Source: Escherichia phage vB_EcoM-101117BS1
Sequence record: MZ234018.1
Reading direction: 5' to 3' (one strand)
Length of the DNA stretch: 64,000 nt
Below the pieces are notes generated by a model. The model saw only the letters and a list, made by a program, of their open reading frames with translations, searched no databases and was not told where the DNA came from. Shown piece after piece: positions 29,913 to 33,215 of the stretch. A program made the position numbers and the translations under genes. Each line of letters begins with the position of its first letter. Position 1 is the first letter of the stretch.

Positions 29913-29939
29913 ATTTAGAAGGGGCCGAAGCCCCTCTCC
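29913..29939 (-). promoter_or_regulatory. gene 38 translation-initiation hairpin (split RBS)
   Basis: GGAGAGG then hairpin GGGGC-TTCG-GCCCC then CTTCTAAAT then ATG; the hairpin brings the SD close to the AUG. Confidence 0.6.
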
Positions 29940-32900
29940 TTATGCTAAACGAACGATATAGTTAAAAGCAATGTTTTTAACCGTGTTTTCTGTATTACCT
30001 GTACTATTTACAGTGATAGTATGACCATGCGAGCCAATTGCTACCTTGTGGGTATGAGCACCGATACCTACAGTATGGGTATGAGCACCAATACCTACTG
30101 TGTGAGCATGGTTACCTGTAGTGCTTGTAGTACCAGACCAAGTATGAGTATGAGCACCGTCTGAAGAAGTTTTGGCTATATTCGACCCTGCAGTAGCACC
30201 GTTCACGGTTCCAGTGAATTTAGCGTTGGCGTTTGCACCTACACTATTATATCCGTCATAGAATATGTTATTGGGTATGCCGGCTTGTATCTGAGGACCT
30301 GAGCGCGCATGTTGGTGTGCACCAGCAGAACTCGTAGTACCGCTTACAGTATGAGAGTGGTTACCTGTGGTATTGCTAGTCTTAGTGCCATAGTCAAAGC
30401 TACTTGTCGTCTTAGTACCATAATCAAAACTCGACGTAGTTTTAGTACCCAAGTCAGTACTTGAAGCCGATGCACTATGGCTATGAGCCTTAACACCATC
30501 GGCTTCTGCGCTTAATACAGCTCGACCACTTGGTTTACCTTTAATAGTTTGCCCGCGCATATCTGGAATTACGCCAGATGGGTAAGCCATAGCCAATTTT
30601 GGGTATGCAGACTTATCAAAAGTCTGGCCTTCCATAATAGCGTAACCGTCAGGAGGAGTATCCGTTGGCCATGGAATAGGAGCACCGATTGGGTAACTCG
30701 ATACAATATCGGTTTTAAGTGATTCAATTGTACTGTTTAAATTAGCAAAATTGCCAGAACCACCTGTAATATTGCCGTCTGTACCTAAATAAACTGAACC
30801 ACCAGCAGAAACACGCTTAGGAGATATAAAATCACCATTTTTGTTAAATTCCCAACCTAAATCCTTTATAATAGCGCCAGTCGAACCGCCATCGCCGCCT
30901 TTATGATAATGAACTCTGAAGTTACCGCCGTTAATTAGAGTTCCCAGAGAATAACAACTGTTTCCTTGGACATATCGTTGTTTCAAAATAGGAACGTAAG
31001 TACTTTTATCTGTACGATTAATATTCATATAGAATGGAGCACGAACGTTTTCATTATTTTGTGAAGCAAAAGACCCTGCACCAGCCGGGCGAACTGTGTC
31101 AGTACATTCAGCATCAATATAAGCTGCTTGTCCTACCTGCATACGGTAATTAGGAGAAATGCGACTATTACTAGTAACAACAACAAGTTTGGTATCGTTG
31201 TCCACAGTAATCATATTACCGCCAGCGCCATCATCGCCTAACGTAACAGAATGGCGCATTTGTACCATACCATTATTAAGACTAATACTAAGTGGGCGGA
31301 GATTACTTATTCCACCACTTTCACCGGCATCTTTAGGAGTCGGGATAATATGTAATGCTGTTTCTGAGCGACGGAAAATAGCACCGTATTCGGCATTCCA
31401 AATTCTTAATGCATCAGCAGTTCCACCAATTTTTACTTGTCCAGTAATAGAAGAACCACCTTGGACAAACAAACCATTAGACATGGTAACATTACCGACT
31501 AAAGTGCTTAATCCATTAACTTTAAAACTTCCGTCAGTAATAATACTTCCTCTAGCATTAACTTGTCCATTGAACTGGGTTACAACAGGCCCAGTAGTTT
31601 CAGAGCCACTTGGAGCCACACGCTGTGAATAAAAATAATATCCTTGTCCATCAGCTACTTCAAAAACCGTTTCACGATTACGATCGCCAGATGCGTTAAA
31701 TGAATTACCCCATGCTTTAACAGTTACATAGCTTTTATTCTGACCAGCACGAGTACCGCCTTCCCACAAAATTTGCTTAGTGCCATCAATTGTAGTAGTT
31801 GGAGCGAATGTTAGCCCAGCAGTAGAATTATTAGCTGCTAAATATATGCCATTATATATTGAAAGCTGCTTAACAGATGTAATACCGCCATCAGCATAAA
31901 ACATTACATTATTAGAGCCAGTTACCAATTTCAAAATACCCGGGTTAACTTCCATGCCTTCTTGAGTATTAATATTAGTTTTGCCTTTACCACGGAAATA
32001 GTGGTTCATTTTTCCGCCTGAGTTATAGCCAATATGCGTCTGGCCGTCTCCAGCAGTGTTTTCATCAGCTTGTGTTTGAACCGATAAAAACGCGGCGTTG
32101 GTTCCAGGCATAATCCATGTTGTACCTTGGTCCTCGGAACGACCAAAAATCGCTTTACGGGTACTACGGAAACTATCAGGAGTAATAGATGCTAAAGAAA
32201 GACCACTAGCAACTAAATCATATACTCCAGTTTTTTTGTATGATAAGCCTGTTGATGCATCACCGATAACTATATAACATTCGCCCATTGCTCCAGCGGA
32301 GCCGTAGTTATTAATGTTTTCATCTGTTGTAATTGTACCAATTGCGAGTGAGCGTCGTAATACTAAAGCCCCATCATTACGAAGACCCATTTGTTTATTA
32401 ACGGCTGTATTACCAGTCCACCAAGAAAGTTCATCACTTTTTCCGGTTTGCGCAGAAGCTAATTCATGATAAATTGTACCGCCTGATTTAGCTCGAACTT
32501 TACGAAGATAGTTTATACCATTTTCTTCGCCTGTTCCAGGATAAACATATTGAACTAATGATTGCGAATCGTATTGTCCAAATGCTTTTGTATCTAAAAT
32601 AATATTTTTAGTATTAATCTGAGGCGAAGTAATATTTCCAATAGCTGCAATATTTCCAGATGTAGTTATACTACCTCCTGATACTGCTAAACCTCCACCG
32701 TCAACAGTAAATCCGCCGTCACGTCGAAACGTCCAATATTTCGAATCGCCAGATTCATTGATATAATGAATCTTCAACGAACCTTCAGAAACTAAAGTAC
32801 CTAATGAAAAAGTTCCATCTTTAAAGCGCTGTTTAATTATAGGATTATATTCAGATGTGAAAGTAGCTGAGCTTAAATCTACAAAAATTGGAGCTTTCGC

Positions 32901-33215
32901 AGTATGTTGACCGGACCAAGCCCCACTTCCAGTAGTACGATAATTAAACTCAATATATCCACCGCTTGCTACAATTTGCGGACCAATTAAATTAAATTTT
33001 CCAGTCTGTGTATAATCACCAGTTTGAGTGATATTACCACTGATATTACCGCCAGTAGAAATGCTTAAATCGATGATATTTCCTGAATCATCTTTAGTAA
33101 AAATTGTTCTATCTTTTAAGTTTATAGCCAATTCACCTTCGGCTAATACTGAAGCAGCAGGACGTGCACCTGCGGTTTTGCTTCTTTTAAATTGTATTTG
33201 TTTTAAAGTAGCCAT
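29940..33215 (-). CDS. 37: gp37, long tail-fibre distal subunit (receptor-binding tip)
   Basis: 1091 aa; C-terminal His-box repeats and ...[11 protein letters not shown] end; T4-type. Confidence 0.9.
30015..30116 (-). repeat. tandem Hx[10 protein letters not shown] repeats in the gp37 tip
   Basis: [34 protein letters not shown]; about 24-bp nucleotide units repeated. Confidence 0.85.
30366..30455 (-). repeat. tandem 30-bp repeats encoding [10 protein letters not shown] in gp37
   Basis: [30 protein letters not shown]. Confidence 0.85.

Follow-up and report, generated by a model that had tools for sequence, protein, structure and literature searches.

Tandem repeats of a TuIb/Bas40-type gp37 as probable paired stem modules of a T4-type tail-fibre needle

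The tandem repeats encoded near the 3′ end of gene 37 of Escherichia phage vB_EcoM-101117BS1 are very probably paired structural modules in the trimeric, metal-stapled stem of a T4-type gp37 needle, and not a hypermutable tract. The gene was analysed within a window of 64,000 nucleotides, the whole stretch taken from sequence record MZ234018.1. Its product is an already known long-stem, OmpC-type allele, that of TuIb and Bas40, published in 1990 and common to dozens of phages. The unit numbers of the two repeat arrays are coupled to each other across homologous needles, are invariant among relatives and vary independently of the type of receptor-binding tip that the stem carries.

Gene 37 encodes 1091 amino acids and T4 gp37 1026, as the initial annotation had correctly stated, and the two proteins align over their full length with 68% amino acid identity (pairwise protein alignment, 1102 columns). 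A 183-aa ORF and then a 218-aa holin-sized ORF lie on its 3′ side, and ORFs of 1289, 371 and 221 aa on its 5′ side, on the same strand; this order reads as the T-even long-tail-fibre module 34-35-36-37-38-t. The needle matches 2xgf_A (E = 2.3e-95, chain residues 2–242), with gaps that fall exactly at one decamer and one nonamer (HMMER). It contains eight HxH motifs, at aa 911, 953, 967, 1022, 1036, 1045, 1054 and 1063, with spacings of 42, 14, 55, 14, 9, 9 and 9 residues; the sequence NHAHT directly before the nonapeptides makes four HxH motifs at an exact 9-residue spacing. The homology to T4, the match to 2xgf and the eight motifs bear out the earlier recognition of the gene as a gp37 of T4 type whose needle carries HxH motifs. 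The parts of the needle and the repeat units are listed in Table 1.

Table 1. Gene 37, gene 38 and the parts of the gp37 needle in the window (positions of the whole stretch; aa, residues of gp37)
Feature	Position	Strand	Basis or remark
Gene 37, long tail fibre distal subunit, TuIb-type allele	29940..33215	(-)	ORF list; 1091 aa; T4 homology
Gene 38, T4-type tail-fibre chaperone, 183 aa	29361..29912	(-)	181/183 identical to T4 gp38
Collar (knob, D10) domain, aa 844-891	30543..30686	(-)	Pfam PF07484 Collar, E = 2.3e-11; aligns to PDB 2xgf
First, collar-proximal HxH motif, AHSHS, aa 911-913	30477..30485	(-)	Identical to T4 H883/H885
Ascending-strand decamer array, FDY-type units	30360..30449	(-)	2 identical decapeptides and a degenerate third
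FDY decapeptide copy 1, aa 923-932	30420-30449	(-)	Exact unit mapping
FDY decapeptide copy 2, aa 933-942	30390-30419	(-)	Exact unit mapping; same 10 residues as copy 1
Degenerate third decamer, aa 943-952	30360-30389	(-)	Exact unit mapping
Ascending 14-residue module, two HxH: NHSH aa 953, AHQH aa 967	30309..30359	(-)	Spacing mirrored on descending side
Tip (head) insertion, aa 970-1021, presumed receptor-specificity segment	30153..30308	(-)	Equivalent to T4 tip 932-959 (PMC6957217)
Descending 14-residue module, two HxH: AHTH aa 1022, NHAH aa 1036	30102..30152	(-)	
Descending-strand nonapeptide array, three xxIGxHxH units, aa 1040-1066	30018..30098	(-)	
Nonapeptide VGIGAHTHT, aa 1040-1048	30072-30098	(-)	
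Nonapeptide VGIGAHTHK, aa 1049-1057	30045-30071	(-)	
Nonapeptide VAIGSHGHT, aa 1058-1066	30018-30044	(-)	
C-terminal return into collar, conserved	29943..30017	(-)	25/25 residues identical to T4

The repeats first noticed in this C-terminal region are real, and consist of a decapeptide in two copies with a degenerate third and of three nonapeptides. Both arrays are detected by Tandem Repeats Finder, the decamers at 30377-30449 (period 30, 2.4 copies, score 83) and the nonapeptides at 30042-30097 (period 27, 2.2 copies, score 64); the coordinates originally given were right in substance and a few bases generous. An exact tandem duplication of 10 residues lies far beyond chance, and this one is kept in more than 100 distinct homologues. 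The DNA units are not near-perfect copies: 8 of 30 nt distinguish the two FDY decapeptides, each of these changes being synonymous (73% identity, longest exact run 8 nt), and 4 of 27 nt distinguish the first two nonapeptide units (85% identity, shared exact run 14 nt). A comparison of paralogous with orthologous units over 26 distinct loci, a guide to the age of the duplication that is limited by the shortness of the units and their saturation at synonymous sites, gave DNA identities of 0.75 within genomes and 0.68-0.72 between them. The window protein gave no match to the phage fibre repeat PF03335 at E <= 0.01, although this family is precomputed for many homologues. An AlphaFold2 monomer of aa 814-1091, built on a 45-sequence alignment, reached a mean pLDDT of 55 and a pTM of 0.23, a monomer being poorly suited to an interwoven trimer.

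The possibility that repeat number differs from that of T4 was raised at the outset, and it does differ. T4 gp37 has one FDY unit (residues 895-904) and two nonapeptides (residues 984-1001), thus one decamer (30 nt) and one nonapeptide (27 nt) fewer than the window, as protein, HMMER and DNA alignments agree. The gap in length between the two proteins had prompted that suggestion. One extra unit of each kind does contribute, but the decapeptide (10) and the nonapeptide (9) make up only 19 of the 65 extra residues, the tip supplying 18 and the shaft a net 28. The T4 needle (PDB 2XGF) and that of the window have in common the collar, the HxH-stapled six-stranded stem and the tip insertion; their collars are 93% identical and their last 25 residues the same, whereas the tip of the window (aa 970-1021) is 15% identical to the T4 tip and 18 aa longer. 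The T4 needle has seven HxH motifs, spaced by 32, 14, 37, 14, 9 and 9 residues, against eight in the window, and seven iron atoms are seen in its crystal structure (PMC6957217).

In T4, the collar comprises residues 811-881 and 1010-1026, the stem residues 882-931 and 960-1009, and the tip residues 932-959 (PMC6957217). Because T4 residues 895-904 and 984-1001 fall within these published stem limits, both repeat arrays of the window can be assigned to the stem subdomain, outside the receptor-binding tip in which the initial annotation had placed them. Two inter-chain contacts described for T4, G921-F970 and H929-G964 (PMC6957217), taken with the symmetric limits of the stem, suggest that an ascending residue i stands opposite descending residue ~1891-i. 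T4 residues 895-904 would therefore be opposite ~987-996, and the FDY unit level with the HxH of a nonapeptide.

We propose that each chain rises from the collar to the tip and would then run back down. On the descending strand, each 9-residue xxIGxHxH unit would give one HxH, and three of these motifs, one from each chain, would bind a single iron ion octahedrally on the axis of the fibre. On the ascending strand, one 10-residue GTKxxSxFDY-type unit may pack at the level of each nonapeptide, and the ten residues against nine suggest that this strand follows a slightly longer, outer path per layer. With four 10/9 layers against three in T4, the allele is predicted to have eight metal sites instead of seven and a stem longer by one layer. 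Receptor choice would be made in the 52-residue tip held between the innermost His boxes, which is of the TuIb/Bas40 type and presumably directed to OmpC.

The support for paired layers comes from a counting rule that relates the two strands. Counted from the first HxH, the next ascending G.H.H comes at a distance of 10n+2, n being how many HxH motifs at 9-residue spacing the descending end has. We pooled 250 distinct complete needles, drawn from two word-indexed protein searches, 50%-identity cluster representatives, 80 IMG/VR loci and fetched genes, the last being the gp37 genes of 15 T-even phages with those of T4, teqdroes and teqhad. The arrays were matched in 249 of these 250 needles, a count that overstates the independent support, the needles being phylogenetically related. 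In three needles flagged as exceptions, one lost His or an internal deletion explains the departure from the rule. The value of n was 3 in 112 needles and 4 in 123 (two of them at 41 residues), while n = 5 was found nine times and n = 2 and n = 6 once each. Among 12 fetched T-even gp37s, n is 4 in 11, and PhiZZ23 has n = 3, as T4. The 14-residue HxH modules are symmetric as well, with ascending and descending numbers of (1,1) in 134 needles, (0,0) in 112 and (2,2) in two. Matched arrays and symmetric 14-residue modules together argue for a stem built of paired layers. This pairing is a modest regularity, and possibly one that was unreported before.

The needle of the window resembles the receptor-binding proteins of the T4/lambda Stf family (PMC9659904), in which a C-terminal region of ~215 aa has conserved flanks and a variable central segment. 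In that family too a gp38/Tfa-like chaperone adjoins the fibre gene, and more than 2500 homologues are found in databases. The N-terminal fibre bodies are unrelated to one another, and the number of modules ranges from 2 to 6. Five homologous fibres (P0135, P0249, P0241, P0248 and locus L097) are built of five or six layers (n = 5 or n = 6) and carry two 14-residue modules on either side, so that prophage and metagenomic fibres span a wide range of needle lengths.

The one needle with unmatched arrays was found on a 10.5-kb IMG/VR contig (IMGVR_UViG_3300030021_000020, our loci L004 and L096) that carries an intact gp37 of 1089 aa, gp38 and a holin. Its gp37 has 84% amino acid identity to that of the window, and its needle (L004:1501-2307) contains two FDY units and two nonapeptides, not three, the only real exception among the 250. 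Exactly one 27-nt nonapeptide unit is missing, with the same junction as in T4. A degenerate-DNA scan of IMG/VR for a 17-residue peptide gave no second unmatched case, and returned only L004 and one fibre with n = 5 that obeys the rule. L004 may represent a genuine loss of a unit or an assembly error; either the coupling of the arrays is not absolute or this contig is misassembled. A unit of the 27-bp array can thus be lost, and nothing ties the loss in L004 to host range.

The allele itself is found in many phages. Fourteen phage records contain the whole of gene 37 at 99% nucleotide identity or more, and identity reaches 99.8% with FelixPlatter (Bas40), KMB22 and Ozark. The last 576 nt match 207 phage records, and the 60 matches listed, which go down to 84.5% identity, are all equal in length over the stretch that aligns. 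Unit copy number is constant among the close and moderately distant T-even relatives that have been sequenced; copy-number polymorphism was absent from close relatives, both among the 60 matches listed of the 207 and among the sequenced relatives, and only the distant L004 varies. The reference gp37 of TuIb (X55191), a protein of the kind in which an identical repeat number was set beforehand as the result that would speak against the initial annotation, has the same two FDY units and three nonapeptides, with 263 of 267 C-terminal residues identical. Relative to the window, TuIb has three substitutions in the tip (F1000I, T1003S and N1005S) and a fourth, K1057T, in the second nonapeptide. Its gene 37 is followed downstream by genes 38 and t, and its gp38 is the same at 183 of 184 translated positions, stop codon included. 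The TuIb gene 37 sequence was reported by Montag, Hashemolhosseini & Henning (1990, J Mol Biol 216:327, cited in PMC9659904), and TuIb is listed with an OmpC-type receptor (PMC9659904). For Bas40 FelixPlatter, dependence on OmpC was demonstrated by complementation (PMC8594841).

Differences between the window and its closest relatives are few. FelixPlatter shows 5 nt differences over 3276 nt, with the same length and repeats, and has D941N in the second FDY unit; only point substitutions, and no indels, separate the window from FelixPlatter, KMB22, Ozark and teqhad. The gene 37 of teqdroes, 18 nt shorter, was considered as a repeat variant and rejected, its length being explained by an in-frame deletion of 6 codons (ITDGSF, aa 559-564) in the shaft; this gene (L002) is otherwise 99.3% identical to that of the window. 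In the GenBank records of both teqhad and teqdroes, the nonapeptide stretch is annotated as a repeat_region. Four codons of the window have private non-synonymous changes, S119F, T737K, E772K and T1057K (codon 1057, 30045-30047), three of them gains of lysine, and private synonymous changes number zero. The private changes of FelixPlatter, KMB22 and Ozark in gene 37 are likewise all non-synonymous. Such changes are suggestive of selection on the fibre, in numbers that are small. We propose that the long-stem form is old, widespread and fixed and would move among phages by recombination in the conserved flanks, the gene probably changing over short time scales by point substitutions.

Tip type and stem length assort independently. 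Among 99 tip-type clusters, five hold one tip on stems of different n (3 and 4, and in one cluster 3, 4 and 6), with the arrays always matched; the tip of PhiZZ23, for instance, stands on a stem of n = 3 in that phage and of n = 4 in P0005. The occurrence of one tip type on stems of different n indicates that specificity travels with the tip cassette and not with stem length. This agrees with published descriptions of recombination in the conserved flanks (PMC9659904; Tetart 1998 as cited in PMC3157838). T4 (n = 3) and the Bas40/TuIb type (n = 4) both use OmpC (PMC8594841, PMC9659904).

The initial annotation regarded slippage in the repeats as a plausible route to a change of host range, a proposal that these results do not support. 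It amounts to reading the 30-bp and 27-bp arrays as contingency repeats whose unit number rises or falls through replication slippage or unequal recombination, a reading that we consider very unlikely. One 27-nt unit of the window is indeed cleanly absent from T4 and L004, and the two VGIGAHTH copies share their exact run of 14 nt, but the FDY copies have at most 8 exact nt in common and differ at 8 of 30 positions. Tetart et al. (1996, in J Mol Biol 258:726) are said to have described T4 host-range mutants with in-frame tandem duplications in the C-terminal adhesin region of gp37, which would favour such a mechanism; these duplications reportedly arise under selection, have conserved His-box sequence at their junctions and include the specificity segment. 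The window differs from them, since a tip-inclusive tandem duplication of this type was not found in its gp37: it has one tip segment (aa 970-1021), and repetition is confined to the decamers and nonamers of the stem, which are old, diverged and fixed. Copy number shows zero changes in the 60 phage records listed, at 84-99.8% identity, or in the sequenced close relatives. One tip type is found on different stem lengths, and T4 and the Bas40/TuIb type share a receptor despite their different n. With arrays that change together and are matched in all but one needle, slips in one array alone are evidently either not tolerated or not retained. A duplication that arose recently in this phage only, for example in a laboratory host-range mutant, would agree with the four private non-synonymous changes and with the place of T1057K inside the second nonapeptide. 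It is refuted by the equal unit numbers in the TuIb sequence deposited as X55191, in many prophage fibres and in no fewer than 17 records of at least 99% identity, and by the divergence of the copies at synonymous sites.

A different role for the repeats would be that of a length ruler, in which n is adaptively tuned from 2 to 6 so that the tip reaches its receptor through LPS or O-antigen of different depth. We regard this as unlikely. Discrete length classes do exist across T-even and prophage fibres, and the independent assortment of tip type and stem length is as expected of a separately selectable trait; however, needles with n = 3 (T4) and n = 4 (Bas40, TuIb) both use OmpC on K-12, and neutral drift of module number under the registry constraint explains the pattern equally well. 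In its broadest form, which we likewise put forward as speculation with little chance of being right, the paired decamer/nonamer layers would be a general evolvable ruler of iron-stapled needles in the fibres of T-even phages and of lambdoid and other prophages, with n running from 2 to 6 and a stem length selected to match envelope depth. Length would change there by two coordinated gains or losses of units, and unmatched forms like L004 would be intermediates, still viable, in which the tip is displaced in register or twist.

For this phage, the reading of the arrays as paired stem modules makes the repeats a normal part of the stem architecture of a known gp37, and of little consequence. 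The counting rule is useful for the annotation of fibres and for predicting the number of their metal sites. It also sets a design constraint on chimeric tail-fibre tips, where both arrays should be altered together and tips exchanged at the His boxes.

Some further observations concern the neighbourhood of the needle. Within the needle region of gp37, conservation relative to T4 is confined to the collar and the final 25 residues. The gp38 protein is 99% identical to that of T4, yet the needle that it has to fold exceeds the T4 needle by 37 residues and bears a tip unrelated to that of T4. The spacer from the stop codon of gene 37 to the ATG of gene 38 (29913-29939) contains a GGGGC-UUCG-GCCCC tetraloop hairpin at 29921-29934 (-), with an MFE of -15.6 kcal/mol and z = -3.1, and the sole Shine-Dalgarno-like GGAG lies ~25 nt upstream of the ATG. 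The arrangement resembles the split ribosome-binding site known from T4 gene 38, where a hairpin draws the Shine-Dalgarno sequence close to the start codon. Finally, an antisense ORF of 157 aa lies within gene 37 at 31159-31632 (+), and a similar one of 146 aa occupies the equivalent place in L004 (663-1103, (-)); the Gly/Ser/Thr-rich codon usage in the shaft of the fibre probably gives rise to it incidentally.
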